A stretch of 64,000 bases of DNA from an uncultured virus (IMG/VR IMGVR_UViG_3300042890_006716). Lineage: Duplodnaviria; Heunggongvirae; Uroviricota; Caudoviricetes. Shown piece by piece: positions 10,760 to 62,939 of the stretch. Within the stretch, counting starts at the first letter, position 1; each line of letters starts with the position of its first letter. The translations under genes were made by a program, and so were the position numbers. The notes under the pieces are model-generated. The model was not told the DNA's origin. It saw only the letters and a program-made list of their open reading frames with translations, and ran no database searches. The stretch is from IMG/VR virus record IMGVR_UViG_3300042890_006716, one strand, 5' to 3'.

Positions 10760-10764
10760 TTAAA

Positions 10765-28107: not shown

Positions 28108-31100
28108 ATGGCAAAAAATATAACAATTGTACCTGGTAATTTAGTCCCGAATCCCGGAAGGATTCCCTATATTGATTTTGAAAATACGGGAACTTTGAGG
28201 TTAGAGGTCAGACCTTATGGTGCTGGTACTTCTATAAAGTGGGGTTCTACATTATTAATGTCATCGGGTGGTATCCAAGCGTATGATGATATTAATATCA
28301 TTAATAATCTAACTATTGGAGGAATTCAAGTATTAAATGGTACAGGTGCTTGGTTAGGACCTGGAACAAATATAACAGGATTCCAAGGTAATCAAGGAGC
28401 TCAAGGAGCCATTGGAAATACGGGTGCTCAGGGTTCACAAGGTTCACAAGGTGGAAAGGGTAATCAAGGAGCTCAAGGTTCAGCAAATGCTCAAGGTTCT
28501 CAAGGACATCCTGGTGCACAAGGAAACGTGGGACCAACAGGTGCTCAGGGTAATCAGGGCGCTCAGGGTAATGTCGGACCAACAGGTAACGGAGGAGCGA
28601 CAGGTGCACAAGGAGCTCAGGGTTCAACAGGACATCCTGGCGCACAAGGTAATGTGGGAGCTCAAGGTTCTCAAGGTAATCAAGGTGCTCAGGGTAATGT
28701 CGGACCAACAGGTAACGGAGGTGCGACAGGTGCTCAAGGAGCTCAGGGTTCAACAGGACATCCTGGTGCACAAGGTAATGTGGGAGCTCAAGGTTCTCAA
28801 GGTAATCAAGGTGCTCAGGGTAATGTCGGACCAACAGGAGCGACAGGGTCACAAGGTTCACAAGGTAATCAGGGAGCACAAGGTAATGTCGGACCAACAG
28901 GTGCAACAGGGTCACAAGGTTCACAAGGTAATCAGGGCGCTCAGGGTAATGTCGGACCAACAGGTAACGGAGGTGCGACAGGAGCACAAGGCGCTCAGGG
29001 TTCAACAGGACATACAGGTGCTCAAGGTAATACTGGTAATACAGGTGCACAAGGAAATCAAGGTTCTCAGGGTAACGTAGGACCAACAGGTAATGCGGGA
29101 GCTACAGGAGCACAAGGTGCTCAGGGTTCAACAGGACACACAGGTGCACAAGGAAACGTGGGGCCAACAGGTGCTCAAGGTAATCAGGGAGCTCAGGGTA
29201 ATGTCGGACCAACAGGTTCAACAGGACCACAAGGAGCACAAGGAGCACAAGGTTCACAAGGTAATGTAGGACCACAAGGGGCTCAAGGGGCTCAAGGGGC
29301 ACAAGGGGCTCAAGGTTCACAAGGTAATGTAGGGCCTACAGGTAATGGTGGGGCAACAGGTGCACAAGGTGCTCAGGGCTCAACAGGACATACAGGTGCA
29401 CAAGGAAACACAGGTAATCAAGGAGCACAAGGTAACACAGGTTTCCAAGGAGCGGTTGGACCAACAGGTAATGGAGGTGCAACAGGAGCTCAAGGAGCAC
29501 AAGGTTCAACAGGACATACAGGAGCCCAAGGAAATACCGGTAACCAAGGAGCTCAAGGTAATACAGGTTCACAAGGAGCCGTTGGACCTACAGGTAACCA
29601 AGGTGCACAAGGAGCACAAGGTGCTCAGGGTTCACAAGGAGCCGTTGGACCTACAGGTAATGTGGGTGCACAAGGAGCACAAGGTGCTCAGGGTTCACAA
29701 GGAGCCGTTGGACCGCAAGGTTCAGGAGGACCACAAGGAGCACAAGGAGCACAAGGTTCACAAGGAGCCGTTGGACCGCAAGGTTCAGGAGGACCACAAG
29801 GAGCACAAGGAGCTCAAGGTTCACAAGGAGCCGTTGGACCTACAGGTAACCAAGGTGCGCAAGGAGCCCAAGGAGCTCAGGGTTCACAAGGAGCCGTTGG
29901 ACCTACAGGTAACCAAGGTGCACAAGGAGCACAAGGTGCTCAGGGTTCACAAGGAGCCGTTGGACCTACAGGTAATGTGGGTGCACAAGGAGCACAAGGT
30001 GCTCAGGGTTCACAAGGGGCTCGAGGTCCACAAGGTTCAGGAGGACCACAAGGAGCACAAGGAGCTCAAGGAACGGTAGGAGTCTTTGGGCCAACAGGTA
30101 ATTCAGGTACAATAGGTGCTCAAGGAGCTCAAGGAGCTCAGGGTTCTCAAGGGGCCGTTGGACCACAAGGGGCTCAAGGAGCTCAAGGTTCTCAAGGTTC
30201 TACAGGATTTCCAGGTTTTGCGGGTCCTGTGGGAGGAGGAGGACCACAAGGGGCTCAAGGAGCTCAAGGTTCACAAGGTAATGTTGGAAATACTGGTGCT
30301 ACAGGAGCTCAAGGTTCTCAAGGAGCGGGTGGAGCAACAGGTCCGGTTGGGCCTACAGGTTCTCAAGGAGCTCAAGGTGCCACAGGTTTTTCAGGTGCAC
30401 AAGGTGATGTTGGAAATACAGGTGCTGGTGGTGGTACCGGTACTTTTGGATTTCAAGGTTCACAAGGAGATGTTGGACCAACAGGTGCAACAGGTGCCAC
30501 AGGTGCACAAGGAAACACAGGATTTCCTGGTGTTCAAGGACCACAAGGAGCTCAAGGAACAGGTCCTGGTCCTATTGGAAATATCGGTGCAACAGGTGCT
30601 CAAGGTTCTCCCGGACCTACAGGTGCTCAAGGAAATGTTGGAACACAAGGAATTGCTGGACTTCCTGGACCACAAGGTGCTACAGGGGCTCAAGGACCAA
30701 CAGGTGCTACTCAAGGTGCTCAAGGACCTCTTGGATTCCAAGGAGCTCAAGGAGCAGGTGGAGGACAAGGTGCACAAGGTGCTCAAGGACCTACACCAAT
30801 TGTACCATCAGGTGCTCAGGGGGCTCAAGGGGGAATAGGGGAACTTAGAGGTGCCGGTCCATTAGGTGCACAAGGAGCACCAGGACCTACAGGTGCAAAA
30901 GGACCACAAGGTGCACAAGGCGCTCAAGGACCACAAGGTGCACAAGGGTTAACACAAGGTGCTCAAGGAGCACCAGGACCTGCAGGTGCCGACGGACTAA
31001 CAGGTGCTACGGGAGCTCAAGGTGATACGGGACCACAAGGTGCTCAGGGTGCTCCTGGAGCGCCAGGACCGGCAGGACCACCATCAGCATCTTGTTTTCA

Positions 31101-31686
31101 ATATTCAGGTTATTATGCGGGTGACCCGGGTAGTGCTTGTTCATTAAACCGCGGATTTTATGGGGACATATACTCGCCAGACGATATTACTACTTGGACT
31201 AACAACACATCTGTGTTTGAAAATGCGACTGACTGTGCAAATCTTAGTTGTGTAACTCCTTTACCTGCTCCCGTATGGTATGACTTATCATCACTTTATT
31301 ACGACCTAGACACAGGAGGTTGTTTAATTATTGGTGTTCCTAATACTTGTCCTTCAGATATTAGTTTAAAACAAGAAATTACTACTATTGAAAACTCGTT
31401 AGAAAGTGTTTTACAATTAAATCCTGTTGAATTTGATTGGAACGAATTAGACCCCAACTATGAGGCAATGAAACGAGATGGTAAACTACACTCGTTTGGT
31501 TTTATTGCACAAGAAGTTAGAAGTGTAATACCAGATATAATTGAATTAAGGGGTGGCGGTTATTATAGTTTAAACTATACCTCACTTAACGCTTATTTAG
31601 TAGAAGCCATAAAAGAGCAACAAGTATTTATTGATGACTTGGATTCTCTATTAACAAATTTAGAAGAAAAGGTTGAAAGAAATTAA
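28108..31686 (+). CDS. Collagen-like (Gly-X-Y) fibre protein 1 with Cys-rich domain and S74-type intramolecular chaperone
   Basis: About 900 aa of G-X-Y; C-terminal [10 protein letters not shown]...FDW...GFIAQEV. Confidence 0.9.
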
Positions 31687-34600
31687 TATATGGCAGACGT
31701 AATAATATATCCAAGTGGAACTACAGGAAACTCATCGCCTCATATAGTATACGAGGGGGCGTCTGCTGCGGATAGTATCCAAATTAATATGGTTGCACCG
31801 GGTGATGTCAAATTTTCTGCAACAACAAGTCCATCATTAGTAGTTTTCAGTAATAATGACATAACAACTACAGGTGTTACAATATCAAGTTCACCATCAG
31901 GTTTATGGGTTGGTGGTCAAAATATGATTAATAATGCCGGTGTATGGATTGGACCACAAACAACTATTAAAGGTGCTCAAGGAGCTCAAGGAAATGTTGG
32001 GGCACAAGGAACAACGGGAGCTCAAGGTGGGGGTGGTAGTACAGGAGCTCAAGGAGCACAAGGTAGTACTGGTGCTCAAGGAGCAGTAGGAGCACAAGGT
32101 GCTCAAGGAGCGTCTCAAGGGGCGCAAGGAACAACAGGGGCACAAGGTGCTCAAGGTATTGCAGGTGCTCAAGGTGGTGTCCAAGGAAATCAGGGAGCAC
32201 AAGGTGCTCAAGGAGCCGTTGGTTCACAAGGAGCTCAAGGAGGTTCACAAGGTGCTCAAGGTACGACAGGTGCTCAAGGTGCTCAAGGTAGTACAGGTGC
32301 TCAAGGTGGGACACAAGGAGGACAAGGAGCCCAAGGTGCTCAGGGAGCCGTTGGTTCACAAGGTGCTCAAGGAGGTTCACAAGGTGCTCAAGGTACGACA
32401 GGGGCACAAGGTGCTCAAGGTAGTACAGGTGCTCAAGGAGGAACACAAGGAGCGACAGGAGCCACAGGTGCCCAAGGTGCCCAAGGTAGTACGGGCGCTC
32501 AAGGAGGAACGCAAGGAGCGACAGGGGCGACAGGAGCTCAAGGTGCTCAAGGGACAACAGGTGCTCAAGGTGGTGTCCAAGGAAATCAGGGAGCACAAGG
32601 TGCTCAAGGAGCCGTTGGTTCACAAGGAGCTCAAGGTGCATCACAAGGTGCTCAAGGTGCTCAAGGTACGACAGGTGCCCAAGGACCTACGGGAGCTCAA
32701 GGTGGTGTCCAAGGAAATCAGGGAGCACAAGGTGCTCAAGGAGCCGTTGGTTCACAAGGTGCACAAGGTGCTTCTCAGGGTGCTCAGGGTACGACAGGTG
32801 CTCAAGGAGCTCAAGGTAGTACGGGAGCTCAAGGAGGTGTCCAAGGGGCAACAGGTGCGACAGGTGCCACAGGAGCACAAGGACCTACAGGTGCTCAAGG
32901 TGGAGTTCAGGGGGCAACAGGTGCCGCTGGTACAACAGGTGCACAAGGACCTACAGGAGCACAAGGTGGAGTTCAGGGAAATCAGGGAGCACAGGGTGCA
33001 CAAGGAGCCGTTGGTTCACAAGGAGCTCAAGGGGCTTCTCAAGGGGCTCAAGGTGCTCAAGGTACAACAGGTGCCCAAGGACCTACAGGAGCACAAGGTG
33101 GAGTTCAGGGAAATCAGGGAGCACAAGGTGCTCAAGGAGCCGTTGGTTCACAAGGAGCACAAGGAGCTTCTCAAGGAGCTCAAGGTGCTCAAGGTACAAC
33201 AGGTGCCCAAGGACCAACAGGTGCACAAGGAGGACCTCAAGGGGCTCAAGGTGCTAATGGAACAACAGGTGCACAAGGGCCAACAGGTGCTCAAGGTGGA
33301 GTTCAGGGGGCAACGGGTGCTAATGGAACAACAGGTGCACAAGGACCTACAGGTGCTCAAGGTGGAGTTCAGGGTGCAACAGGGGCCACAGGAGCTACAG
33401 GAGCTCAAGGACCAACAGGTGCTCAAGGTGGAGTTCAGGGTGCGACGGGAGCCACAGGAGCTACAGGAGCTCAAGGACCTGTTGGTGCACAAGGAGGACC
33501 TCAAGGGGCTACAGGAGCCACAGGTGCAACAGGGGCTCAAGGACCAACAGGTGCTCAAGGAGGAACGCAAGGAGCGACAGGTGCCACAGGTGCGACAGGA
33601 GCTCAAGGACCAACAGGTTCTCAAGGAGGTGTACAAGGAGGACAAGGTGCTCAAGGAGCCCAAGGTGCTCAAGGACCAACAGGTGCACAGGGAGGACCAA
33701 CAGGTGCACAGGGTGCTCAAGGTGGACAAGGAGCCCAAGGTGCTCAGGGAAATCCAGGAGGACCTCAAGGTGCTCAAGGGGCACAAGGTGCGACTGGACA
33801 AACAGGTGCTGTTGGTAATCAAGGTGCTCAAGGAGCGGTCCAAGGAGCAACAGGCTCTACAGGACCAACAGGAGCTCAAGGTGCTCAAGGACCACAAGGT
33901 ACTCCGCAAGGGGCTCCAGGTGCTACAGGTGCTACAGGTGCTCAAGGACCTGTTGGTGCACAAGGAGGACCTCAAGGGGCTCAGGGTGCTACAGGTGCTA
34001 CAGGACCTCAGGGATTCCAAGGTGCTACAGGAGGTACTCAAGGTGCAACAGGTGCTACAGGAGCTCAAGGAGCCCAAGGTCCGATAGGGGCTCAAGGAGG
34101 TCCTCAAGGAGCTCAAGGAGCAAAAGGACCTCAAGGCCCACAAGGAGCCACAGGTGCTCAAGGAGGTACCCAAGGAGCTCAGGGTGCCACAGGAGCAACA
34201 GGTTCACAAGGACCACAAGGGAATCCGAGTGTTACACAAGGTGCTCAAGGACCCGCTGGAGCTCAAGGTTCTCAAGGGTCTCAAGGAGCGACAGGTCCTA
34301 CAGGAGGTCCAGGTCCTACAGGTGCTCAAGGTGCGGGAGGAACAAAAGGACCTGCGGGTGCGACACAGGGGGCTCAAGGTGCTGCAGGTCAGACAGGAGG
34401 ACAAGGTGTACAAGGGTCAAGAGGACCTCAAGGACCAACAGGAGCTCAAGGACCATCGGGACCAAAAGGTGCTACAGGTGCAACAGGAAAGGCCGGAACT
34501 CAGGGTTCCACAGGAGCACAAGGTGCTCAAGGAGGAAAAGGAGCTGCAGGGGCACAAGGAGCACAAGGCGCTCAAGGAGCTGTTACAGGTGGGACAGGTC

Positions 34601-37600
34601 CACAAGGAGTCCAAGGAGCTCAAGGTGCAACAGGACCTGCAGGAGGTACTGGTTCTCAAGGAGCTCAAGGTGCTAGTGTTACAGGACCACAAGGTGCTCA
34701 AGGTGCTCAAGGTAATGCTGGTAAAACGGGACCACAAGGAGCACAAGGTGCTCAAGGACCTCAAGGGCCACCTTCAGATAGAAGATTGAAAGAAAACATC
34801 AAGAAATTTGATAGAGCTATTGATGTTGTTAATATGAATGGTGTATCTTTTGATTGGGTTGAAAATATACCACAACTTTCATTGTATAAAGACAATGAAA
34901 AGTATTTACTTAAAAAACGAAGTATAGGTTTTATCGCCCAACAAGTTGAAAAATATTTTCCTGAAATTGTTTGGGAAGATAAGTTTGGTTATAAATCTTT
35001 ACAGTATGAACTACTTGTTACTCTTGGAGTATCTTTTGTAAAAGAAAATCAAAAAAGAATGGATGTCCTTAAAACATCATTAACTGAATTAGAAGAAAAA
35101 TTACGTGGCTGAGAATATAATAATAGTACCTGCAAGTATAACAATACAATTTTATGATTCGGGGAATACTCGAAGTGATTTGGTATATTCTAGTTCTACA
35201 TTGAATTATGTTGTAAATCAAACAACAACATATCTAAAAATTGCCAAGACAGCACCTATATTCCAAGTACAAAATACAAATTTAAGTGCTAATACAGTTA
35301 CAAACAATTACGGATTAATAATAGACTCTACCGGATGGAAAGGTAATGTAAATGCTGGACCACAAGGCGCTCAAGGTAATCAAGGTGCCCAAGGAGGACA
35401 AGGTGCTCAGGGTAATACTGGTAACCAAGGTGCTCAAGGAGCGGTTGGTAGTCAAGGAGCCCAAGGAGCTCAAGGTTCCCAAGGAGCAACAGGAGGGCAA
35501 GGTTCACAAGGCGCACAAGGAGCTCAAGGGGCAACAGGTAACCAAGGGGCTCAAGGAGGACAAGGTGCTCAAGGTGCTCAAGGCGCCCAAGGTGGAAAAG
35601 GTAATCAAGGCGCTCAAGGTGGACAAGGAGCTCAAGGAGCTCAAGGTTCACAAGGAGCGGTTGGTAACCAAGGTGCCCAAGGAGGACAAGGAGCTCAAGG
35701 AGCTCAAGGCGCTCAAGGTGGAAAAGGTAATCAAGGTGCTCAAGGTGGACAAGGTGCTCAAGGAGCTCAAGGTTCACAAGGAGCGGTTGGTAACCAAGGC
35801 GCCCAAGGAGGACAAGGAGCTCAAGGAGCTCAAGGTTCACAAGGAGCGGTTGGTAACCAAGGTGCACAAGGTGGACAGGGAGCTCAAGGAGCTCAAGGGG
35901 CTCAGGGTGCGACAGGTAATCAGGGTGCTCAAGGTGGACAAGGGGCCCAAGGAGCACAAGGTGCTCAAGGTGGAAAGGGTAACCAAGGTGCCCAAGGTGG
36001 ACAAGGAGCCCAAGGAGCACAAGGTGCTCAAGGTGCAACAGGAACACAGGGTGCTCAAGGTGGACAAGGAGCCCAAGGAGCACAAGGTGCTCAAGGTGGA
36101 AAGGGTAACCAAGGTGCCCAAGGTGGACAAGGAGCCCAAGGAGCACAAGGTGCTCAAGGTGCAACAGGAACACAGGGTGCTCAAGGTGGACAAGGAGCCC
36201 AAGGAGCACAAGGGGCTCAAGGAGCAACAGGAACACAGGGTGCTCAAGGTGGACAAGGTTTCCAAGGAGCTCAAGGTGCTCAAGGTGCAACGGGAACACA
36301 AGGTGCTCAAGGAGGACAAGGTGCTCAAGGAGCACAAGGGGCTCAAGGTGCTCAAGGTGGACAAGGAGCGCAAGGTGGACAAGGAGCGCAAGGGGCTCAA
36401 GGTTCACAAGGGGCAGTTGGTAACCAAGGTGCTCAAGGTGGTCAAGGAGCCCAAGGGGCGCAAGGAGCTCAAGGGGCTAAAGGTAATCAGGGAGCCCAAG
36501 GTGGACAAGGAGCACAAGGGGCTCAAGGTTCACAAGGGGCAGTTGGTAACCAAGGTGCTCAAGGTGGTCAAGGAGCTCAAGGAGCTCAAGGAGCGCAAGG
36601 AGCGACAGCAACTCAGGGTGCTCAGGGTGGACAGGGAGCACAAGGAGCTCAAGGTGCACAAGGAGCGACAGGAACCCAAGGGGCTCAAGGAGGTCAAGGT
36701 TTCCAAGGAGCTCAAGGGGCTCAAGGTGCAACAGGAACCCAAGGTGCTCAAGGTTTCCAAGGAGCTCAAGGAGCTCAAGGAGCTCAAGGAGCAACAGGAA
36801 CCCAAGGAGCTCAAGGAGGACAAGGTTTTCAAGGAGCTCAAGGGGCTCAAGGTACAACAGGAACTCAAGGTGCTCAAGGAGGTCAAGGTTTCCAAGGGGC
36901 TCAAGGAGCTCAAGGTGTATCAGGAACTCAAGGTGCTCAAGGAGGACAAGGGGCTCAAGGTTCTCAAGGTTCTGTAGGTATATCAGGTACTCAAGGTGCT
37001 CAAGGAGGACAAGGTTTCCAAGGAGCACAAGGGGCTCAAGGTGCTGTTGGAGTACAAGGTGCACAAGGAGGTCAGGGGGCTCAAGGTTTCCAAGGAGCTC
37101 AAGGTGCTGTTGGTAACCAAGGTGCGCAAGGAGCAACAGGTGGACAAGGAGTCCAAGGAGCAACAGGAGGACAAGGAGCACAAGGAGCTCAAGGCGCAAC
37201 AGGAGGACAGGGAGCACAAGGGGCTCAAGGTGCTCAAGGAGCAACAGGAACTCAAGGGGCTCAAGGAGGACAAGGTTTTCAAGGAGCACAAGGTTTCCAA
37301 GGAGCAATAGGTCCACAAGGAGCGCAAGGTGGGCAGGGAGCTCAAGGTGCTCAAGGTGCCACAGGAGCTCAAGGTCCACAAGGGGCGCAAGGAGGACAAG
37401 GTTTTCAGGGAGCTCAAGGAGGAACAGGTGCTCAAGGGTCTCAAGGAGCAACAGGAGGACAAGGATTCCAAGGAGCGCAAGGTGCTCAAGGGGACGTAGG
37501 TGGAATAGGACCTAATGGTCAGCAGGGATTCCAAGGAGCCACAGGTGCTCAAGGACCTGTTGGAGCTCAAGGAGCTCAAGGTGCAACAGGACCAACAGGA

Positions 37601-38066
37601 CCTCAAGGGGCTCAAGGTTCACAAGGAGCCGTAGGACCTACAGGGGGTCAAGGATTTCAAGGTGCTCAAGGTGCAACAGGACCAACAGGACCTCAAGGTG
37701 CAACAGGACCAACAGGACCTCAAGGTGCTCAAGGTTCAGGTACAGCCGGCGCTCAAGGTGCTCAAGGCGCTCAAGGAAATTCAGGTGCTATTGGAGCTCA
37801 AGGAGCTCAAGGGGCTCAAGGGCCAACGTCTCCTAATGGACCACAAGGTGCACAAGGTGCAACAGGGGCTCAAGGAGCTCAAGGTTCACAAGGTTTTGAG
37901 GGAGCCGTCGGTGCACAAGGACCTACAGGTCTTAAAGGACCAACAGGTGCTCAAGGTTCTGCAACACCAGGTCCAACAGGGGCACAAGGAGCACCAGGGG
38001 CTCAAGGAGGTGCTAGTTCAACATTCGGAGCACAAGGAGCTCAAGGTCCACAAGGACCAACAGGTC
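28378..38066 (+). repeat. Three blocks of coding 9-nt (GGN GCN CAR) repeats with 63/66/126-nt higher-order units
   Basis: ggtgctcaa/ggagcacaa arrays within the three collagen genes; locally GC-rich. Confidence 0.9.
31690..35112 (+). CDS. Collagen-like fibre protein 2 with S74-type chaperone
   Basis: About 930 aa of G-X-Y with regular one-residue insertions; [10 protein letters not shown]...IGFIAQQV. Confidence 0.9.
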
Positions 38067-38389
38067 CTTCAGATGAAAGACTGAAAAAAGATGTTAAACC
38101 TATCGGTGATGCTCTAAATAAGATATTAAGTATTAGAGGTGTCACATTTAAATGGAGAGGTAAAGAATATAGTTCTAATGACAAAAAAGCTATTGGATTT
38201 ATTGCTCAAGAAGTTTTGCCTTATGTTCCTGAAGTTATTTATACTGAAGGTAAAGTGTTAACAATGAATTATAAAGAAATGATTGCCGTTAACATTGAAG
38301 CGTTAAAAGAACAAGAGGTTAGAATAACATCTCTTGAAGAGAGAGCTAAAAAAGTTTTGGATAAAGCTAAACTAAAGGGGATTATTTAA
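35105..38389 (+). CDS. Collagen-like fibre protein 3 with S74-type chaperone
   Basis: GTG start overlapping the previous stop; about 900 aa of [13 protein letters not shown]...IGFIAQEV. Confidence 0.9.
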
Positions 38390-43136: not shown

Positions 43137-44300
43137 ATGAAAGTTAAATTAGAATATGTGTGGTTGGATGGGTATCAGCCAGAACCTAATCTTAGAAGTA
43201 AGGTTAAGGTGATTGAAAAAGAAGAGACTGGTCTTCAGAATATTCCATATGGGGATATTATAACACTGAAGGATTGCCCTGAGTGGAGTTTTGATGGTTC
43301 ATCAACACAACAAGCTGACGGACATTTTTCTGATTGTATTTTGAAACCTGTTAGAGTTTATCACAACTCACTTAACGAAGGTGGTCTATGGTCTTTCTTG
43401 GTGTTGTGTGAGGTTATGAATCCCGATGGGACTCCACACGTATCAAATACAAGAAGTCTTGTTGGGGAAGAAGAAGAGGACCTTTGGTTTGGTTTTGAAC
43501 AAGAGTATACCATTATGAAAGATGGTAGACCTTTGGGTTTCCCTGAGAATGGATATCCTGAACCACAAGGAAAATACTATTGTGGTGTAGGTAACGGACA
43601 AGTTAACGGTAGAAAATTTGTGGATACTCATATGGAAAATTGTATCTTGGCAGGTATTGAAATTACAGGTACAAACGCCGAGGTCTTATTGGGTCAGTGG
43701 GAGTACCAGGTATTCTCCAAAGGTAAATTAAAGGCCGGTGATGATTTGTGGATGTCGAGATACATTTTACAACAAATGTCTGAGGACTATGGTTTTAAGA
43801 TTGAATTCCACCCTAAACCTGTGATGGGTGATTGGAATGGTTCAGGATTACACTGTAACTTCTCAAATGACAAGATGAGAAATGAAGGTGGTGATGAATA
43901 CTTCAAAAACATCTTTAACGCCTTTGATTCACGTCATCAGTTACACATTAACAATTACGGTTCTGATAACAATCTTCGTTTGACTGGTAAACACGAAACC
44001 CAATCTATTGACAAGTTTAGTTGGGGGGTTGCTGACCGAGGTGCATCAATCAGAGTTCCATTGTCTACATCAAAAGAATGGAAGGGTTATGTTGAAGACC
44101 GTAGACCGGCATCAAATGGTGACCCATATAAAATTGTTGGTATCATATCCGAAACTCTGGACTTTGCATTAACTCTTGATAAGATTATTCATAATATGAA
44201 TACTAAAGTTGATACTCAAAAATCACCACTTAAAGATATTATGGAACAACATCAATTCGAAGAGTCTGAAAATAAAAGTGGTTCAATTTATAACGATTAA
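43137..44300 (+). CDS. glnII: Glutamine synthetase type II
   Basis: LEYVWLDG, WSFDGSST, WFGFEQEY, PQGKYYCGVG, NAEVLLGQWEYQ, DWNGSGLHCNFS, RLTGKHET, EDRRPASNGDPY. Confidence 0.95.
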   Translation: MKVKLEYVWLDGYQPEPNLRSKVKVIEKEETGLQNIPYGDIITLKDCPEWSFDGSSTQQADGHFSDCILKPVRVYHNSLNEGGLWSFLVLCEVMNPDGTPHVSNTRSLVGEEEEDLWFGFEQEYTIMKDGRPLGFPENGYPEPQGKYYCGVGNGQVNGRKFVDTHMENCILAGIEITGTNAEVLLGQWEYQVFSKGKLKAGDDLWMSRYILQQMSEDYGFKIEFHPKPVMGDWNGSGLHCNFSNDKMRNEGGDEYFKNIFNAFDSRHQLHINNYGSDNNLRLTGKHETQSIDKFSWGVADRGASIRVPLSTSKEWKGYVEDRRPASNGDPYKIVGIISETLDFALTLDKIIHNMNTKVDTQKSPLKDIMEQHQFEESENKSGSIYND

Positions 44301-48180: not shown

Positions 48181-49593
48181 ATGAAAAAAATAATTAAGGA
48201 ATCAGGTTTAAGAGACATTAAGGCTTTGGCACAAAGATACCCAAAGGCTAAAATATATTTCCACCAAGATTTGGATGGTGTAACAACTGCAATTGCAATG
48301 AAAAAATACCTTGAAGATAATGGTATTAAAGTTGTTGATAGTGAGGTTATACAGTATGGAGATAAAGAATTCTCAGTTAAAAAACCTGATGCATCTGGTG
48401 ATGTAATGCCAGTCTTAGTTGATTTTGCTCACGGTAAACCAATGTTTGTTATTCACACTGACCACCACGACAAACAAGTCGGTGCTGAGAAAGACGCTTC
48501 AAAGTCTTTTAGACAGGCAAGGTCAAACGTTGAAACCATTTCACAAATTATCTCACCAAAAGAATTATTTCCTGCTGATGACATTAGATTAATATCAACT
48601 GTCGACTCAGCAGACTTTGCCAAATATGGTTTAACAACCAAGGATGTAATCAATTATTTGTTTAGACTTAACAAAGAAAAAGATTTGGCTAGTAACAAAA
48701 TGTTGTTAGGATTTGTTACAAACAAACTATTGTTGGCGTTCAAAAACAAGAAAGGGTTCCTTGAATACTTGGTTAATGATTCGGAACCATCCTTACTTTC
48801 AATATTAAACAACATCAAATCTTGGATGGGTTCCAATACAAGAGAAAAACCTGAGGACCTTCAAAGAAACGCTGAGACCTATATGGACTCAATGAAAGGT
48901 CATCCAAATGTTAGGAAGATTGGTAATATCATCGTTCAGTATGGTATGGGTAGTTTAAAAGGTACTGGGTCATATGACCGATACACTCCTTTTAGAAACA
49001 ATCCTGAAGCTGACTTCTTAATTATTATGTGGCCGTTAGGGTTAGTACAGGCATCTTGTAATCCATTCAAAAAAGATAGAGAACTCAAAGGTGTTAATCT
49101 CGGTGAGATTGCACAAGAGGTTCTGGCCAAATGGGAGGGACAACTTAAAGATAGAACAATCCCATTATCAACGATAAAGTATGTGAGTGAATCATCAGTT
49201 GGACCTGAATCAGTAGGATTTACATTCAAAGACTTCGATGCAATTTATGGTGGTAAGTTGATGATGATGGATGGTGGTGAAAAAATCCTTGATAAAATTA
49301 AGGATATGATGGAAAAACCATACGACCAACTATCTGAAGAAGAAATGCAAATGTTAGATAAGATTGGTATCAACGCTTGGGACTTGATTCAAGCTAACTC
49401 AGGTGGACACAAATGTATTACCAACATATCAGGACTTAACTATCTTGGAAGAAGTACAAGACCACCAAGAGGTTCATACAGATACGACCCTGAAAGAGAG
49501 GACGCTCCTTACATTAAGTTTGTTAAAATGATTGGTGAGGAATTTTTGAGAAAGTTACAAGAGAAGATTGATGCTAGTCAACAAGAATCTTAA
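48181..49593 (+). CDS. DHH-family phosphoesterase
   Basis: FHQDLDG, LVDF, TDHH, TVDSAD and SGGH motifs. Confidence 0.75.
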   Translation: MKKIIKESGLRDIKALAQRYPKAKIYFHQDLDGVTTAIAMKKYLEDNGIKVVDSEVIQYGDKEFSVKKPDASGDVMPVLVDFAHGKPMFVIHTDHHDKQVGAEKDASKSFRQARSNVETISQIISPKELFPADDIRLISTVDSADFAKYGLTTKDVINYLFRLNKEKDLASNKMLLGFVTNKLLLAFKNKKGFLEYLVNDSEPSLLSILNNIKSWMGSNTREKPEDLQRNAETYMDSMKGHPNVRKIGNIIVQYGMGSLKGTGSYDRYTPFRNNPEADFLIIMWPLGLVQASCNPFKKDRELKGVNLGEIAQEVLAKWEGQLKDRTIPLSTIKYVSESSVGPESVGFTFKDFDAIYGGKLMMMDGGEKILDKIKDMMEKPYDQLSEEEMQMLDKIGINAWDLIQANSGGHKCITNISGLNYLGRSTRPPRGSYRYDPEREDAPYIKFVKMIGEEFLRKLQEKIDASQQES

Positions 49594-49924
49594 TCTCATC
49601 ACCTTTTTTGATATCGAGTTCTTTTGCAGAACCACCCATAATTTCTAAAATCATTCCACCCTTTCCACAATAACTTGGACAGTCATCTTCTTTACAAGGA
49701 GGACAGTCGTGGTGTATCTTAGTTATTACTCTATTATCAATGAATATGATATCAAGAGGAATGACGCAGTTCTTCATCCAAAAACAACTTGAGTCTTCAT
49801 CCATAAAGAATAACATACCGTTATACTCGTCAGTAAATTTACGACCCATCATACCCATAGCACGACCTTTATTGTCGTGTCTAATCTTCACATTGAATAT
49901 ATTTTCACCTATTTTTACTCTCAT
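49574..49924 (-). CDS. DUF192 family protein
   Basis: GMMGR...GMLF...FWMKNCVIPLDIIFI...ILEI.GG. Confidence 0.85.
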   Translation of the reverse strand: MRVKIGENIFNVKIRHDNKGRAMGMMGRKFTDEYNGMLFFMDEDSSCFWMKNCVIPLDIIFIDNRVITKIHHDCPPCKEDDCPSYCGKGGMILEIMGGSAKELDIKKGDEIKILVD

Positions 49925-49938
49925 AGATATCTATAAAT

Positions 49939-50358
49939 ATGAATGATTACAAAAGATACGTCGGTGTACTAGTCAAAGTTGGTGACAAATGCTTACTATG
50001 TAAGAGAAATAAGAAGGGTAGTTTCCCTGGTATGTGGTCTGTTCCTGCGGGAAAAATTGAAGAGGGGGAAGAGACAAGGGTGGCAGCTGTTAGAGAATTT
50101 AAAGAAGAAACTGATTTAGATTTGAATCCTGATAACTTAAAGTTCACTGGTATGTTACCAAGATTTACGCGTGATGGTAAACACTTCAAGGGACTAATGT
50201 ATCTATATGAATACAATAGCGATACGGAACTTATACCTGATTTGGAGAGTGCCAAAGACGGTGAGGAACACACCGAATGTGGTTATTTTACCAAAAAACA
50301 AGTAAAAAACCTTGAAACAGGAGAAAAATTAAATAAATTGTTAATGAATATACTGTAA
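49939..50358 (+). CDS. NUDIX hydrolase
   Basis: GKIEEGEETRVAAVREFKEETDL Nudix box. Confidence 0.9.
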   Translation: MNDYKRYVGVLVKVGDKCLLCKRNKKGSFPGMWSVPAGKIEEGEETRVAAVREFKEETDLDLNPDNLKFTGMLPRFTRDGKHFKGLMYLYEYNSDTELIPDLESAKDGEEHTECGYFTKKQVKNLETGEKLNKLLMNIL

Positions 50359-50443
50359 GACTTGGTTTTTTCCAATTTTAGCATATATTTATAAAACTCT
50401 ACCGAAAGGTAGATAATACCCCCAAAAAAAGTTTCATAAACAA

Positions 50444-50475
50444 TTTGACAAGTCCAAAATTTGTTCGTAAGTTTG
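50444..50475 (+). promoter_or_regulatory. Promoter for the tRNA leader (TTTGACA ... TAAGTTTG)
   Basis: Bacteroidota -33/-7 elements; same spacing as the promoter at 50686-50716. Confidence 0.7.
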
Positions 50476-50588
50476 TGAGACACTCGGAAGAAGAGGAGTA
50501 GAATCCTCAAACCCCAAATCCCAAAATGAGTGTTCGAGAGGATATAAGTTTTGGGATTTTTTTTCGAATCACGTTCTTTAAAATATAT

Positions 50589-50662
50589 CGCGGGGTGGTA
50601 GCAGTTGGTAGCTCGCAAGGCTCATAACCTTGAGGCCGTCGGTTCGAGTCCGACTCCCGCAA
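50589..50662 (+). tRNA. tRNA-Met (CAT), initiator-like
   Basis: Cloverleaf: acceptor CGCGGGG/TCCCGCA with C1:A72 mismatch, anticodon arm CAAGG-CTCATAA-CCTTG, T arm GTCGG-TTCGAGT-CCGAC; CCA not encoded. Confidence 0.93.
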
Positions 50663-50685
50663 CAAAAAAAACTTTTACAAAGTGC

Positions 50686-50716
50686 TTGACAGATTAAAAT
50701 AATCTTCTTAACTTTG
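50686..50716 (+). promoter_or_regulatory. Promoter for the large ncRNA (TTGACA ... TAACTTTG)
   Basis: -33/-7 elements followed by CACGTTCTTT, a boxA-like motif. Confidence 0.7.
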
Positions 50717-50751
50717 TGAAACAATTAACGAAACACGTTCTTTTACATATT

Positions 50752-51610
50752 TGATTATCCTTCTAACCAACAGGTTAGTAAATAAGATAATTGGCCGCCT
50801 ATGGTCAATAAATAAACCACGAAAGTGGGATAAAGTGGTCTCCGAAGGTTAACGGAGACTGCGGTTCTTTGAACTTCGGTTCTTAGAGCTCGAGTAGGCA
50901 AGCGGGATATCATTGTTCCTGAGTAGTCGAGGGTGACACTGTAGACAAAATGGAATGATGACTCAGCGATGTGGGTCGTTGAGTTGAGTTCGGAAGAACA
51001 ATAAGAATAACTCGTAGAATTGTTGTGAGAAGTAAAGTCATCCAACTTTACAATCACGGGATTCAATATCAGAGGTGTCTTAAAGACGAAAGTCATGTTA
51101 TCGTACAGGTGGTGCTGTTGGTAACCTTAGTTAGAATCTACCAAGATTTTAATTATGAAGATTTCTTGAAGTATCGAGGTAGGGATATCTCAGAGAGTAG
51201 TTCAGTATCGAGTCGTTCAAAAGATGGCTTGTCTGGTTGGCAGACCGCTACTTTCACCATCCACAGACCAACAACTTTGCATTTTGAAGTATGCAAATAC
51301 TAAAAGACGAAGGAAAAGTGTCTGTCAGTCGTAGGCGAAAGGTGACTACATAGTAATGAGATGTTCATTGCCATTATGGGTTCCCAAGACCCAAATGATT
51401 CTTGAGAAAGTTCTCTAATCCCGCAAGGATTCACTGGGGTGGCAACCTCGGAGAGTAACAAGTACAAAGAGAGTAACCGCACGACTCAAGGAATGGTACC
51501 CCTAAGGAACCGTCACTAAGAATTACTACTCAAAAGGTAGTGGAAACGGGAAGAAACAATAATGTCCCTAAAGATTCTTAATCGAAGGTGTATTCTCAAC
51601 CTAAGTGCCA
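50752..51610 (+). ncRNA. Giant structured ncRNA, probably GOLLD-class
   Basis: About 860 nt with no credible ORF, raised GC and many helices with GAAA/TTCG/GCAA loops; directly after a tRNA; has its own promoter and terminator. Boundaries approximate. Confidence 0.72.
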
Positions 51611-51611
51611 G

Positions 51612-51642
51612 AACCCGAAGAAAAAAATCTTCGGGTTTTTTT
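51612..51642 (+). terminator. Intrinsic terminator of the ncRNA
   Basis: aacccgaaga-aaaaaa-tcttcgggtt followed by a T-run. Confidence 0.85.
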
Positions 51643-51675
51643 GTTTATATGAAAAGTTATTTCTATATTTGTGGT

Positions 51676-51969
51676 ATGAAAATCAATTTTACATACAATA
51701 TTAGGATTGAGAACGAGAAGTTCGGGACCCTCTTGAATGAAACCTTTGTTGACGGTATTCAGTTTAAGTTGTTTTTGAAAATGGTTCACGGTTGTTTGGA
51801 ACTCAAAGGAGATTTGGATTTCTTCAATGGTACCGACTTCTTGGTTCACATTCCGTACAAATATTTGGTTGATTCAATTGTTTTGACTTCATTGATTACA
51901 CCCACGGTTGGTGAGGTATCATTGTCAGAACATATGAAATCCAAAGTGGAAGCTTTGGTTACCAAGTAA
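51676..51969 (+). CDS. Hypothetical protein
   Basis: ATG 4 nt after TATATTTG; the ORF track's longer start lies inside the ncRNA and terminator. Confidence 0.7.
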   Translation: MKINFTYNIRIENEKFGTLLNETFVDGIQFKLFLKMVHGCLELKGDLDFFNGTDFLVHIPYKYLVDSIVLTSLITPTVGEVSLSEHMKSKVEALVTK

Positions 51970-52023
51970 ATCCTGGTAGTCCAGGTGGTGGAGTCGATTG
52001 ACAAATCCTGTCAGTCCCAAAAG

Positions 52024-52052
52024 AAAAGGTCAGATATCATCTGACCTTTTTT
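52024..52052. terminator. Bidirectional terminator between convergent genes
   Basis: aaaaggtcagat-atc-atctgacctttt. Confidence 0.8.
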
Positions 52053-52575
52053 ATTTTTTCCTATTTCCTAAAACTACCGGAACTCCTAAGTAATTTGAAA
52101 TTGACCTTTGTATGACAGACATCCAATCTTCTATTGCATCATCAAGTTGGTAAGGTTCTTCATCAGATATCACTTCAAAAAGTTCGTCTAATGTATATGT
52201 TTGAGTATTACCTTCATCATCCATAAACTCGACTAAAGAATCTTTTAATTGCCAATCTTCAATCAAAATACCAATGTAAGGGTTACCAACTTCTTCTAAA
52301 ACCGTATTTGAATTACTAAAATCCAAATCAAGATAACTTGGGTTATCCTGTCCCCATTGAGCATATGGGTAAATTTTAAATACACCATCTTTTTGAGATA
52401 AACGTTTTACTGAGGTGTCGAAGAACTTATCGGCCCCTGATTCACCAAATCTATCTGCAACCATTTGGGCGAACTTGATTTTGTTCAGATTCATAAAATC
52501 CAAAATATCTGTTGCTTTTGGGTTTGGGTAACCACCTGAATGTTTGAAAATTCTTAAAACGTCATCTAATTTCAT
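52051..52575 (-). CDS. Hypothetical protein
   Basis: 174-aa ORF; TATTTAT upstream on the minus strand. Confidence 0.7.
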   Translation of the reverse strand: MKLDDVLRIFKHSGGYPNPKATDILDFMNLNKIKFAQMVADRFGESGADKFFDTSVKRLSQKDGVFKIYPYAQWGQDNPSYLDLDFSNSNTVLEEVGNPYIGILIEDWQLKDSLVEFMDDEGNTQTYTLDELFEVISDEEPYQLDDAIEDWMSVIQRSISNYLGVPVVLGNRKK

Positions 52576-52663
52576 ATTTTACCTCAAGATATTTAATAAA
52601 TACCACAAGACTGGTATCTTGTTTACATACAAACAACTTAAAACTATTTTTACAAAAAAAACT

Positions 52664-52969
52664 ATGGAAATAAAAATCACATCAAAAGAAATACTCTCCC
52701 ACCCAAACGATTATTCTCTCGGTGAATATGTTCGTCAAAAATATTGGAATGAGATTGAGTTAATGAAATCTAACCGAGATGAACACGTTACGTTACAGAT
52801 AGACGAGAACGGTATGGTTACAAGTTTAGGTAACAGTATCGATGGGTTTGAAGTTTGTATCCAATGTGGTAGAAAAACAAACGTACCAACAGGAACCCAC
52901 GTTGACTTCAGGACCAACTACTACGAAGGTGCCGGACAAGGTTGTGACGGAAGTTGTAGAAATTCTTAA
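52664..52969 (+). CDS. Hypothetical protein with C-terminal Cys motif
   Basis: CIQCG...YEGAGQGCDGSC. Confidence 0.65.
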   Translation: MEIKITSKEILSHPNDYSLGEYVRQKYWNEIELMKSNRDEHVTLQIDENGMVTSLGNSIDGFEVCIQCGRKTNVPTGTHVDFRTNYYEGAGQGCDGSCRNS

Positions 52970-53034
52970 AAAAAGTTTTGGCAGTTTGGATAATATCACT
53001 ATCTTTGTAGTGTTAAAAACAAATACACACACAT

Positions 53035-54428: not shown

Positions 54429-55676
54429 ATGAAGACAAAAAAACCGTCAGCAATAGTGTATGGATTAGGTACGGAAGGTGAAACAACCTTAATCTCACAA
54501 ATATACTGGGAAGAACATCTGTTTGATGATGTTGTTGTTTATAATCTACCATATACAAACGATGTCGTTGGTGATTATACAAAATATAAACCTGACTTAA
54601 TTATAAGTTTTGGTGAAGAAGTAAACATCCCACACTATCATTTGAAAAGATTTCACATTCACTATGATGAACCGATTGATGAAGCAATTTTGGCGAACGT
54701 AATTGTTTGTCAGACTGTGTTTAGAAACTGTGAATATTTTAGACCAAGATTTACAATTTTCACACCAACCTACAAAACAGGAGAAAGGATTTATAGGACT
54801 TATGAGTCTTTAAACAACCAAACCTTTGATAATTGGGAATGGGTTGTGGTTGATGATTCGCCTGACCCTGAAACTTGGGAGATGATAACTGAAATTGCGG
54901 AGAAAGACTATCGGGTAAAACCTCACAGGATTTATCCATTATCGGGTGGTAATATTGGTTTGGCTAAACATCGTGCAGCTATGTTAGGTGATGGTGATTG
55001 GTTGATTGAATTGGACCACGATGATTGTTTGGTTACAACTTGTCTTGAAACCGCTAATGATGCAATATTAAAATACCCTGACGCGGGATTTCTTTATACT
55101 GATTGTTCAGAGATATACGAGGACGGTGAACCTAAGTTTTATGACCACGATTGGACTGGTAATTGGTATGCTCGTCACGATAACTATTTTGACTTTGGGT
55201 ATGCTGGACACAGTTGGGTAAATGTTGACGGTGTTGATAGACTTGCTCATTGGTACCCTGATGTAAACCCACTCACAATTAGATTCAATATCACAATGCC
55301 AAACCACGCTAGAATGTGGGAGAGAAGTGTTTATCATAATATTTCAGGACACAATAAATTAACACCTGTTGCTGATGACTTGGAGATTCTTATTCGTACA
55401 TTTTTAGAAACCAAGATGATTCACGTAAAGAAGGTGTTATATCTACAATACAACAATAACAACTCAACAGTTGATAATAATGCAACAGATATTAATCGTA
55501 GGGCCAGATTAATCAGGGACTTCTATGATAAAAGAATACACGACAGAATTGAAGAAATGGGTTATTTTGATTGGAATTGGGATGAGATTACACAACACTC
55601 ACAAAAGTTCCAAAACAGTGTCCCAATCAAAAAATACTATAAACAAGAACAAGTAATGAATTACATTTATGAATAA
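54429..55676 (+). CDS. Glycosyltransferase family 2
   Basis: TIFTPTY, WEWVVVDDS, ELDHDD and ADDLE motifs. Confidence 0.85.
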   Translation: MKTKKPSAIVYGLGTEGETTLISQIYWEEHLFDDVVVYNLPYTNDVVGDYTKYKPDLIISFGEEVNIPHYHLKRFHIHYDEPIDEAILANVIVCQTVFRNCEYFRPRFTIFTPTYKTGERIYRTYESLNNQTFDNWEWVVVDDSPDPETWEMITEIAEKDYRVKPHRIYPLSGGNIGLAKHRAAMLGDGDWLIELDHDDCLVTTCLETANDAILKYPDAGFLYTDCSEIYEDGEPKFYDHDWTGNWYARHDNYFDFGYAGHSWVNVDGVDRLAHWYPDVNPLTIRFNITMPNHARMWERSVYHNISGHNKLTPVADDLEILIRTFLETKMIHVKKVLYLQYNNNNSTVDNNATDINRRARLIRDFYDKRIHDRIEEMGYFDWNWDEITQHSQKFQNSVPIKKYYKQEQVMNYIYE

Positions 55677-56826
55677 AAAAACCAAAATTTGCTTAAACGC
55701 GATGGTGGCTAATGAGGCCAGAACTATCACAAGAATGTTAGACTCCTGTTTCCAATATATTGATTATTGGGTTATACAGGACAATGGGTCTACTGACGGA
55801 ACACAAGACATTATAAGAAACTACTTCAAAGAAAAAGGGATTCCTGGATTCCTGTATGAGATTGAATGGCAATATCCAGGATGGAATAGAGACCATACCT
55901 TACAGGAATGTTTGAAGGCTGACCACGGATGTGATTGGATTCTGAGAATGGATGCTGATGAACAACTAATTGTTGATGAGGACTTTGATTGGACTGTATT
56001 GGAAGACACTTCAATTGATTCATTCAACATTACAGCTCAGGCAATGGGTACAAAGTATTACAGAACTTGGTTATGGAATGCAAAAAGACCTTGGTTTTTT
56101 CAACACGATAAAAGACACGAAACAATTCACTTACCTGAAGTCGGTGAAAATTTCCAAAGAATGGTTCTACCTTTTGGATTTAGACACTTAATCACAAATG
56201 ATGGTCAGACTTGGTTTGCACCAAGAAAGTTTTTGAGAGATGCTTTGGAATTAGAAATTGACAAAGTTGTTGGAAACACCATCAATGAGGATATGTATCA
56301 TCTTTGGTATGTTGGTAAGAGTTATGCTGATTGTTATGGAAATCCTGATGAACTTGCATTTGGAAAGGACCACTCAGACGAATATGCTCGTAGAGCGATT
56401 TTCTACTTTAATAAGTTTTTAGCACTTAATCACAACTGGTTTAATACTGGTAAACCTGCAAGATTAGATGAGATGTCATATCTAACATTTATACTTTTGG
56501 GTGAAGCATATAACTTTAGAGGGGAGTATGATAAAGCGGAAGAACACTACAAATCTGCAGGACCGTTCTCTCCAACAAGAAATGAACACTTGATGTATTT
56601 GGCATTCTTTTATGAGAAAAGACAAAGGAACAAAGAAGCTCTTGAGGTTGTTGAACAAATGATTAATGAAGGTAGAGAAAACCCATATCCTAATTTGTGT
56701 TTCTTGATTGAGGATAGATGTTATACTAATTCATCTAACTTCTTGTATGAGTTCAAAGAAAGATTAGAGAACAAGATTAATAAACCTGTATTATCTCCTG
56801 ACAGTGTCGTTTTTGACTTCCTATAG
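55669..56826 (+). CDS. Glycosyltransferase family 2 with TPR-like C-terminus
   Basis: CLNAMVANEA, QDNGSTDGT, RMDADE, HE; helical TPR-like repeats. Confidence 0.85.
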   Translation: MNKKTKICLNAMVANEARTITRMLDSCFQYIDYWVIQDNGSTDGTQDIIRNYFKEKGIPGFLYEIEWQYPGWNRDHTLQECLKADHGCDWILRMDADEQLIVDEDFDWTVLEDTSIDSFNITAQAMGTKYYRTWLWNAKRPWFFQHDKRHETIHLPEVGENFQRMVLPFGFRHLITNDGQTWFAPRKFLRDALELEIDKVVGNTINEDMYHLWYVGKSYADCYGNPDELAFGKDHSDEYARRAIFYFNKFLALNHNWFNTGKPARLDEMSYLTFILLGEAYNFRGEYDKAEEHYKSAGPFSPTRNEHLMYLAFFYEKRQRNKEALEVVEQMINEGRENPYPNLCFLIEDRCYTNSSNFLYEFKERLENKINKPVLSPDSVVFDFL

Positions 56827-57931
56827 ACATTATGACTTTGTAATCGTGGGGGCAGGTCTCTTTGGAGCAATCTGCGCCCACGAACTAAGTAAGAAATTCA
56901 ACGTATTAGTTGTTGAAAAAAGAAATCATATCGGTGGAAACTGTTATACTGAAAATATAGACGGTATACACGTTCACAAGTATGGTGCTCACATATTCCA
57001 TACTAATGATGAAAGAGTTTGGAACTACGTAAACAGATTTGCAACTTTTAATCAGTTTGTTAATTCACCTTTGGCTAACTATAAGGGTGAGATTTACTCA
57101 TTACCTTTCAATATGTGGACATTCAATCAACTGTGGGGTGTTAACACACCTGAAAAGGCACAGTATATGATTGATGAACAAAAATATAAGGGACCTATCA
57201 CTAATTTGGAAGAACAAGCTCTTTCAATGGTAGGGACTGACATATATGAAAAGTTGATTAAAGGTTATACTGAGAAACAATGGGATAAGAAATGTTCTGA
57301 ACTACCACCATCCATTATTAAAAGATTACCTGTTAGATTTACTTGGAATAACAATTATTTCAATGACAAGTACCAAGGAATTCCTGACGGAGGTTATACC
57401 CAAATTTTTGAAAAACTACTATCAGGTATTGAAGTACTGACTGAATTTGATTTTTTTGAGAATAGAGATATCCTTGAGTCTTTATCTGATAAGATAATTT
57501 ACACAGGACCAATTGATAAGTTTTACGATTACGAATTTGGTCGATTGGAATATCGTAGTCTTAGATGGGAGAATTACCAATTAGAAGTTGACAACTTCCA
57601 AGGAAACCCTGTAATGAATTTTACTGATTCTGATACTAAGTATACTCGAATATTAGAACATAAATGGTTTGACCCTAAGAATCAAAAAGGTACTTATATC
57701 AGTAAGGAATACTCTTGTGAGTATACTGGTGAGAACGAACCATATTACCCAATCAGAGACGGTAAAAATGTTGAGATTTATGAAAAATATAAATCATTGA
57801 CAGAGTCTGAATCTAAATACATATTTGGGGGTAGACTTGGGACCTATGCTTATTATGATATGCACCAAGTGGTTGCTCAAGCGTTACATACGGTAGATGG
57901 GATTTTTCGTAAATACGACTACTCGAAGTAA
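56804..57931 (+). CDS. glf: UDP-galactopyranose mutase
   Basis: VGAGLFG, HIGGNCY, HKYGAHIFHT, YTEKQW, EPYYP, GRLGTYAYYDMHQ. Confidence 0.95.
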   Translation: MSFLTSYRHYDFVIVGAGLFGAICAHELSKKFNVLVVEKRNHIGGNCYTENIDGIHVHKYGAHIFHTNDERVWNYVNRFATFNQFVNSPLANYKGEIYSLPFNMWTFNQLWGVNTPEKAQYMIDEQKYKGPITNLEEQALSMVGTDIYEKLIKGYTEKQWDKKCSELPPSIIKRLPVRFTWNNNYFNDKYQGIPDGGYTQIFEKLLSGIEVLTEFDFFENRDILESLSDKIIYTGPIDKFYDYEFGRLEYRSLRWENYQLEVDNFQGNPVMNFTDSDTKYTRILEHKWFDPKNQKGTYISKEYSCEYTGENEPYYPIRDGKNVEIYEKYKSLTESESKYIFGGRLGTYAYYDMHQVVAQALHTVDGIFRKYDYSK

Positions 57932-62473: not shown

Positions 62474-62507
62474 TATTTTTTAGTTATCATTGTTAAAAAC
62501 AAGATAT

Positions 62508-62939
62508 ATGAGTAAAGTAAAAATCTCAACAGCAAAAGGTGATATGATTGCGGAGTTGTATGACAACGAAACTCCAATCACGGTAGAAAACTTTAAGAGT
62601 TTGATTAACAAGAAATTCTATGACGGACTTAATTTCCATAGAGTGATTCCTGGATTTGTTGCCCAAGGTGGTTGTCCTAACGGTGTTGGAAATGGAGGAC
62701 CTGGATACACAATCCAATGTGAAGTAACAGCGCCAAAACAATTCCACGATAAAGGTGTTCTTTCAATGGCACACGCTGGTCGTAACACAGGAGGTTCACA
62801 GTTCTTTATCTGTCACAATAGACAGAACACCCAACACTTGGACGGTAATCATACCTGTTTTGGGAAGATTGTTGAAGGTGTTGATATCATTGACCAACTC
62901 CAACAAGGTGACCAAATCAATTCTATGGAATTGATTTAA
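62508..62939 (+). CDS. Cyclophilin-type peptidyl-prolyl isomerase
   Basis: FYDGLNFHRVIPGFVAQGG, LSMAHAGRNTGGSQFFI, HLDGNHTCFG. Confidence 0.95.
   Translation: MSKVKISTAKGDMIAELYDNETPITVENFKSLINKKFYDGLNFHRVIPGFVAQGGCPNGVGNGGPGYTIQCEVTAPKQFHDKGVLSMAHAGRNTGGSQFFICHNRQNTQHLDGNHTCFGKIVEGVDIIDQLQQGDQINSMELI

Follow-up and report, generated by a model that had tools for sequence, protein, structure and literature searches.

GOLLD RNAs are among the largest and most elaborate RNAs of bacteria or phages and form cages larger than the ribosome; we know of no member of the family for which a function has been established. The closest described relative of the RNA reported here is env-38, an 833-nt RNA from a marine metagenome scaffold encoded downstream of a Met-tRNA. 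According to its cryo-EM study, env-38 assembles into a 14-mer cage with D7 symmetry, in which residues 1–420 constitute the cap and residues 421–833 the ring, and a disordered linker (residues 497–538) faces the cage interior (PMC12286853; the structure is PDB 9MEE according to PMC12990946). The same paper describes the 5' domains of GOLLD RNAs as the less conserved half, treats the two halves of env-38 as separate structural domains and cites a ribosome pull-down of GOLLD. The 700-nt GOLLD of Streptococcus agalactiae lacks P9, P11a–c and P21b and forms a 12-mer instead of a 14-mer; its 3' domain alone yields mainly a 10-mer, and the stoichiometry depends on the 5' domain (PMC12990946). ROOL RNA (RF03087) resembles GOLLD in being large and ornate, in occurring close to tRNAs in phages or prophages and in building an RNA-only nanocage, yet the two are unrelated in sequence and fold.

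Here we describe a GOLLD RNA encoded on a 64,000-nt stretch of viral DNA (IMG/VR record IMGVR_UViG_3300042890_006716; hereafter the window). A previous sequence-only reading had proposed an ornate non-coding RNA of about 860 nt at 50752–51610, downstream of a tRNA, and had offered two identities for it, membership of GOLLD or a hitherto undescribed class of giant RNA. The RNA is a member of the GOLLD family. When all 64 kb were scanned with Rfam, the GOLLD model RF02032 matched 51193–51602 on the plus strand with 307.5 bits (gathering cut-off 150, E 4.3e-87), and the match spans model positions 1–416 of 416, that is, the whole of a model that describes the conserved 3' half of GOLLD only. This bears out the first of the two proposals. 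The scan yielded two matches at gathering score, GOLLD and a tRNA; ROOL, OLE, group I and II introns, RNase P and tmRNA, the other classes that the earlier reading had named for comparison, gave no gathering-score match within the 64 kb, a permissive Rfam scan of 50400–51300 returned nothing better than E ~4 beyond GOLLD and the tRNA, and ARAGORN did not find a tmRNA in the window. The RNA lies where the earlier reading had placed it, with a conserved core of 813 nt slightly inside its limits, in which a large, less conserved 5' domain precedes the conserved 3' domain (Table 1).

Table 1. Features of the GOLLD locus in the window. Bridges B1–B10 follow the numbering of env-38 (PMC12286853, supplementary tables) and were assigned by eye.
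Feature	Position	Strand	Basis or remark
Promoter-like P1: TTGACA, 17 nt, TAAGTTTG	50445–50475	+	Upstream of the tRNA; consensus match only
CACGTTCTTT motif, copy 1	50570–50579	+	Ends 10 nt before the tRNA 5' end
tRNA-Met(CAT), initiator-like	50589–50663	+	ARAGORN; only tRNA in 64 kb
Promoter-like P2: TTGACA, 17 nt, TAACTTTG	50686–50716	+	Geometry identical to P1; consensus match only
CACGTTCTTT motif, copy 2	50734–50743	+	In the GOLLD leader
Leader hairpin ctaacc-aaca-ggttag	50763–50778	+	Variable among relatives; outside the env-38 cryo-EM construct
GOLLD 5' domain	50790–51192	+	Covariation on 56 sequences, identity to huge phages, collinearity with env-38 by eye
B1: GAAA loop	50821–50824	+	Receptor hairpin 51352–51371, stem identical to env-38
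B2: GAGGGUGACAC	50929–50939	+	GAGGGUxAC daisy-chain hairpin as in env-38
B3: GGAA loop	50992–50995	+	With CUU/AAG receptor helix, as in env-38
GAAA loop of the P11 hairpin (5' domain)	51088–51091	+	
B5: GGUGGUG loop and UACCA loop	51108–51114 and 51139–51143	+	Invariant in 56/56 sequences
GOLLD 3' domain, Rfam-modelled part	51193–51602	+	RF02032 match
B6: CAAAAG loop	51215–51224	+	G-U receptor pair; as in env-38
Variable linker	51262–51308 (approximate limits)	+	Low posterior probabilities in the Rfam alignment; poorly aligned among relatives
B7: J13/15-L20	GG 51312–51313 with CC 51384–51385	+	As the env-38 contact
B8: CGCAA palindromic loop	within 51418–51430	+	As in env-38
B9: GGCA palindromic loop	within 51436–51449	+	As in env-38
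B10: CAAAA loop	within 51526–51540	+	As in env-38
3' tail AAGTGCCA	51603–51610	+	Common to one sub-clade only
Intrinsic-terminator-like hairpin and T-run	51610–51639 (51612–51642 by motif search)	+	Consensus match only

The 5' domain, which RF02032 does not model, has relatives of its own. In a BLASTN comparison with phage records, 50793–51120 aligned with the genomes of two uncultured phages (634,780 bp at 71.5% identity and 642,428 bp at 68.6%), and in each of them a single RF02032 match follows shortly after the aligned region. The nearest record, a 15-kb fragment (G001), has a GOLLD score equal to that of the window. When IMG/VR was scanned with a 28-nt pattern derived from the first 5'-domain GAAA hairpin, at least 120 stretches were returned, and nearly all of these loci were confirmed by nhmmer as having the same 5'-plus-3' architecture. 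The nhmmer profile was built from a three-sequence alignment; among the matches listed there were 134, of which 76 loci are full length with both halves in the same order, the others mostly being loci present as short or cut stretches. A scan of viral_contigs with the 15-mer CAGGTGGTGCTGTTG returned at least 119 stretches; among the 119 listed, only 10 are true relatives by nhmmer and the others are chance matches.

Covariation in the 5' domain was analysed on 56 sequences, comprising the window and 55 phage relatives. These derive from 82 full 5' domains among the matches listed, reduced to a non-redundant set by dropping any sequence with more than 60% of its 9-mers in common with one already kept; the near-identical L003 was then swapped for the window. 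RNAalifold predicts 100 base pairs in 21 helices, 81 of which pairs show at least one compensatory double change. Standard pairs are formed in 97.3% of the cells, as compared with 38.1–42.8% when the partners are slid by one to three columns, the covariation score is 0.634 versus 0.086–0.123 in the slid versions, and in 500 column shuffles not one of the five measures attained its observed value; prediction and test of the structure used a single alignment, which biases these figures somewhat in its favour, although the margin is very large. Both halves of the RNA have a conserved fold supported by covariation. The single-sequence folding energy of 50790–51602 is −248.5 kcal/mol, against −209.4 ± 7.5 kcal/mol in 20 shuffles (z = −5.2). 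All eight hairpins singled out in the sequence-only reading occur where it had located them, and seven of them sit in helices backed by covariation or the Rfam alignment; the remaining one, the first, falls in the variable leader outside the conserved core. The raised GC content that it had noticed is likewise real: 0.42 in 50790–51602 relative to a window median of 0.35, a value matched by no 813-nt stretch outside the collagen-like genes at 27–38.5 kb.

The published reverse primer for env-38 has no match in IMG/VR, and since no env-38 copy was found in this way the window was mapped onto env-38 by eye rather than with an aligner, using the sequence and the bridges given in Supplementary Tables 4 and 2 of PMC12286853. 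On this mapping the two RNAs have the same two-domain layout and the same core limits: env-38, after two added G's, starts at the equivalent of window position 50790 and ends at the equivalent of 51602, and the window 5' domain is collinear with env-38 residues 3–420. The window retains the sequence elements for nine of the ten intermolecular bridges of env-38. At B7 the interacting bases are paired in all of 59 sequences (the window and 58 non-redundant full-length relatives), with three types of pair at one position (CC/GG in 24, GC/GC in 31, TC/GA in 4); this pair is G-C in the window and A-U in env-38, and covariation at B7 is already known from PMC12286853, which shows it to be an intermolecular contact. 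The tenth bridge, the B4 kissing loops, could form only four pairs in the window (AUCC 51040–51043 with AGGGAU 51181–51186), as opposed to a complementarity of six bases in env-38 and in eight env-like relatives, and B4 shows no covariation signal across the 56 sequences, in which the complementarity of the loops equals that with shuffled partners (3.84 versus 3.83, with 244 of 500 shuffles reaching the observed value). P11 also differs, in that the window has a single GAC-GAAA-GTC hairpin (51085–51094) without the ~20-nt insertion, an inserted hairpin, of env-38. The variable linker, which holds a small hairpin at 51276–51297, maps to env-38 residues 497–538. Unlike env-38, which is marine, the window RNA is of freshwater origin and has an extra leader hairpin and a terminator-like site of its own; a Met-tRNA lies upstream of both. 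With the S. agalactiae GOLLD the window shares the family and the conserved 3' domain P14–P27, and differs in keeping both P21 hairpins (51418–51430 and 51436–51449) and in its longer 5' domain.

By homology, the window RNA should form an RNA-only nanocage. As in env-38 and the S. agalactiae GOLLD, it would fold into a 5' cap and a 3' ring domain and would assemble, free of protein, into a closed hollow homo-oligomer comparable with their 14-mer and 12-mer, respectively. Loop–receptor A-minor contacts and kissing loops would be expected to hold such a cage together, and the variable linker would face its interior. The S. agalactiae RNA forms a 12-mer while lacking P9, P11a–c and P21b, and the number of subunits in the window cage is therefore not readable from the sequence.

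The GOLLD RNA occurs at very high depth in RNA libraries and the flanking genes do not. The stretch was found in twenty public sequencing runs, six of which are freshwater RNA libraries containing 50–64% of its sampled words. Contigs of four RNA runs from four freshwater studies, chosen because they contain the window stretch, were placed on 49000–53000, and all four cover 50777–51601 only; as assembled contigs they reveal neither transcript ends nor strand. One run (X16) contains an exact contig of 702 nt (50777–51478) that extends across both domains, and another (X15) exact contigs of 175 and 365 nt, each with a depth of more than 1200. Binned depth in the latter run is 544–12,526 inside the region versus 0–19 in the flanking genes, and in the other three the flank depth is zero; contig depths in the region exceed those of the flanking genes by factors of hundreds to thousands, although all sequences of at least 90% likeness are added up in them, relatives included. 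The missing cover over the tRNA and the leader carries no evidential weight. We made no use of contig ends as transcript ends, since the left end shared by three runs (50813) probably reflects branching of the assembly graph among strains. The sequence-only reading had recommended metatranscriptome coverage as a check and had stated that an absence of covariation and of a discrete transcript would count against it; on both points the outcome is the opposite, with 81 compensated pairs and, in four studies, deep contigs confined to the region.

Three other accounts of the locus were considered. A new giant structured RNA class that merely resembles GOLLD, the second proposal of the earlier reading, could point to the fact that RF02032 spans only the 3' 410 nt and that 50400–51192 contains no Rfam match other than the tRNA. 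A lower degree of conservation is, however, what is described for GOLLD 5' domains (PMC12286853), the 5' half is collinear with that of env-38, and the match of the 3' half extends over the full model with a score twice the cut-off; together, the RF02032 match and the env-38 comparison already refute a new class, to which we accord next to no probability. It is very improbable, though somewhat less so, that two RNAs are encoded, an unrelated 5' RNA at 50790–51192 followed by a half-size GOLLD at 51193–51602. The two halves are separate structural domains in env-38 (PMC12286853) and the S. agalactiae 3' domain can self-assemble alone (PMC12990946), which would be compatible with such a division, but the exact 702-nt contig crosses the junction, a search of the junction found no promoter-like or terminator-like site, and the 76 full-length loci span both halves in the same order.

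That the region is coding or decayed coding sequence has a practically negligible chance of being correct and is likewise already refuted. Open reading frames of 113 aa (minus strand, 50755–51096) and 92 aa (plus strand, 51025–51303) do exist; yet neither these nor the other overlapping frames (four in all, of 60–135 aa) have a Pfam match at E≤0.1, the plus-strand frames contain 20, 11 and 16 stops, in line with the earlier statement that no credible ORF is present, and substitutions among the relatives preserve base pairs and not codons. The GOLLD reading is upheld by the full RF02032 match at twice the gathering score, the 5' domain collinear with env-38, the adjoining tRNA and the phage context. 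The best overall explanation of 50790–51602 is, with high confidence, a plus-strand GOLLD RNA of about 813 nt from a large freshwater phage, with its cage assigned by homology and its role by context. The RNA is real, complete and expressed, belongs to the env-38 type and, within a class already known, is an ordinary member.

The window is phage DNA, encoding a primase, an SbcC-like nuclease, a sigma-70 factor, a DnaJ, two DNA methyltransferases, a NUDIX hydrolase and an endolysin, with nearly all large ORFs on the plus strand, and the GOLLD gene thus has the phage or prophage context next to a tRNA that is typical of such RNAs. TAnnTTTG is the −7 promoter box of Bacteroidota. The host is probably a member of the Bacteroidota, as suggested by TAnnTTTG boxes and an SprB-repeat match. 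The combination TTG-N20-TAnnTTTG occurs nine times in the window versus 2.3 expected (one of 100 shuffles reaches nine); eight of the nine are on the plus strand and several lie just upstream of genes. Genes at 13932–14741, 22934–23869, 43137–44300, 54429–57931 and 62490–62939 make up a repertoire like that of very large phages: a sigma-70-type factor, a full DnaJ, a glutamine-synthetase-like protein, two GT2 glycosyltransferases with a UDP-galactopyranose mutase, and a cyclophilin. A further feature of the window is a set of three tandem paralogues of 1192, 1140 and 1094 aa (28108–38389, plus strand). They combine long collagen triple-helix repeats with a Peptidase_S74 (endosialidase chaperone) domain at the C terminus and match tail-fibre PHROGs; the GC content of these genes is 0.45–0.58, compared with ~0.33 for the phage, and they show a strong purine skew.

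Both a promoter and a terminator had been attributed to the RNA, and candidate sites for each exist, as consensus matches only. P2 is the probable GOLLD promoter, judging by its sequence, and the relatives have a TAnnTTTG box, located by eye, at the equivalent place; terminator-like hairpins equivalent to that of the window occur in the closest relatives. The promoter-like unit TTGACA, 17 nt, TAAsTTTGTGArAC is duplicated, with one copy before the tRNA (50445–50475) and one before GOLLD (50686–50716). Between P1 and the tRNA, at ~50481–50568 on the plus strand, is a ~90-nt leader in which a long hairpin, CCCAAAA...TTTTGGG, precedes a run of eight T; it may represent a small RNA, an attenuator or a terminator. 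A second repeated element is found in the leader itself: of 59 sequences, 58 have GTTCTT[TA], mostly as AGTTCTTTGA, in the 130 nt that precede the GOLLD core, usually after a −7 box and a small hairpin, and 13 of the 54 tRNAs of the set, window included, have GTTCTT in the 60 nt before them. Candidate roles for the leader motif (GTTCTTTGA) are those of promoter element, processing site or binding site. At the other end of the RNA, the GTGCCA that had been remarked upon is present in the window, but GCCA within 29 nt after the last hairpin is found in only 12 of 49 sequences, the window included, all from one sub-clade, and its interpretation as a tRNA-like CCA end was rejected; most relatives have a U-run directly after P27.

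A non-Watson–Crick C1xA72 mismatch, A73, and the pairs G30-C40 and G31-C39 are hallmarks of bacterial initiator tRNAs. The tRNA that had been noted upstream of the RNA is real and carries all of these, but has A29-U41; its Rfam match (50592–50659) reaches only 37 bits. It apparently has one extra base in the D arm, and CCA is not encoded. The GOLLD core begins 127 nt downstream. We surveyed the 1.3-kb flanks of the 58 non-redundant full-length relatives with ARAGORN and found 53 tRNAs, all on the GOLLD strand. The anticodon is CAT in 29 of them, distributed over 28 of the 58 loci, and of the 35 loci with at least one tRNA, 19 have tRNA(CAT) as the sole kind. A same-strand tRNA lies within 400 nt upstream of GOLLD in 20 of the 58, the nearest being tRNA(CAT) in 17 of these 20, and a tRNA lies within 400 nt downstream in 16. 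Position 1:72 is non-Watson–Crick in 23 of the 29 tRNA(CAT) (14 of them CxA) and paired in six; 23 of the 29 keep both G30-C40 and G31-C39. These counts come from relatives that share ancestry, so the events are not independent, and they relate to the GOLLD flanks rather than to whole phage genomes. In five relatives (L198, L200, L176, L157 and L201) a tRNA(CAT) starts 3–11 nt after the GOLLD 3' end, so that RNase P cleavage would set that end. A conserved stretch, CCAGCGCATGACGTGGATAGGTGAC..., which may be a gene end or another RNA, is found upstream of tRNA-Met(CAT) in one sub-group of the relatives (L013, L156, L026, L075, L055, L197 and L171).

From its context, GOLLD would be transcribed from its own Bacteroidota-type promoter just downstream of the initiator-like tRNA(CAT), and the gene order suggests that it may act while the phage infects its host, with tRNA or the translation apparatus as the most likely target. 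A stronger version can be formulated, in which GOLLD and the initiator-like tRNA(CAT) constitute one module in a clade of aquatic, probably Bacteroidota-infecting phages: the two would be specifically coupled and made or processed together by way of a common GUUCUUU...AUAU leader, and the cage would act on the initiator tRNA or on initiation. In its favour are the predominance and the initiator-like features of tRNA(CAT) in the flanks, the solitary tRNA of the window at its position upstream of GOLLD, the leader motif shared by both window genes, nearly all GOLLD cores and some of the tRNAs, the closely following tRNAs of some relatives, and the Met-tRNA upstream of env-38 and the cited ribosome pull-down of GOLLD (PMC12286853). 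Against it, 30 of the 58 relatives have no tRNA(CAT) in the 1.3-kb flanks examined, the counts share ancestry as stated, and a location close to tRNAs of whatever kind is an established trait of GOLLD (PMC5737381) that may reflect only the co-transcription of stable RNAs. On balance we regard the module as unlikely. Our literature search for GOLLD together with an initiator tRNA brought up only three plant papers, all unrelated, and the point may already stand in earlier GOLLD papers; a search for GOLLD with huge phage, jumbo phage or megaphage and tRNA-Met found no GOLLD paper among the best 20 of 262.

The window locus adds nothing categorically new and is, apart from the linkage of tRNA and leader motif, just one more member of the family; that linkage is the new part, a modest one, and is a lead and not a result. 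The locus and its relatives are nevertheless useful in three respects. Among phage contigs from freshwater the env-38-type 5' domain is widespread, it is also present in phage genomes of more than 600 kb, and lake metatranscriptomes contain the RNA in very high abundance. Its repeated association with an initiator-like tRNA, together with the common leader motif, provides a concrete and testable lead on what GOLLD RNAs may do.
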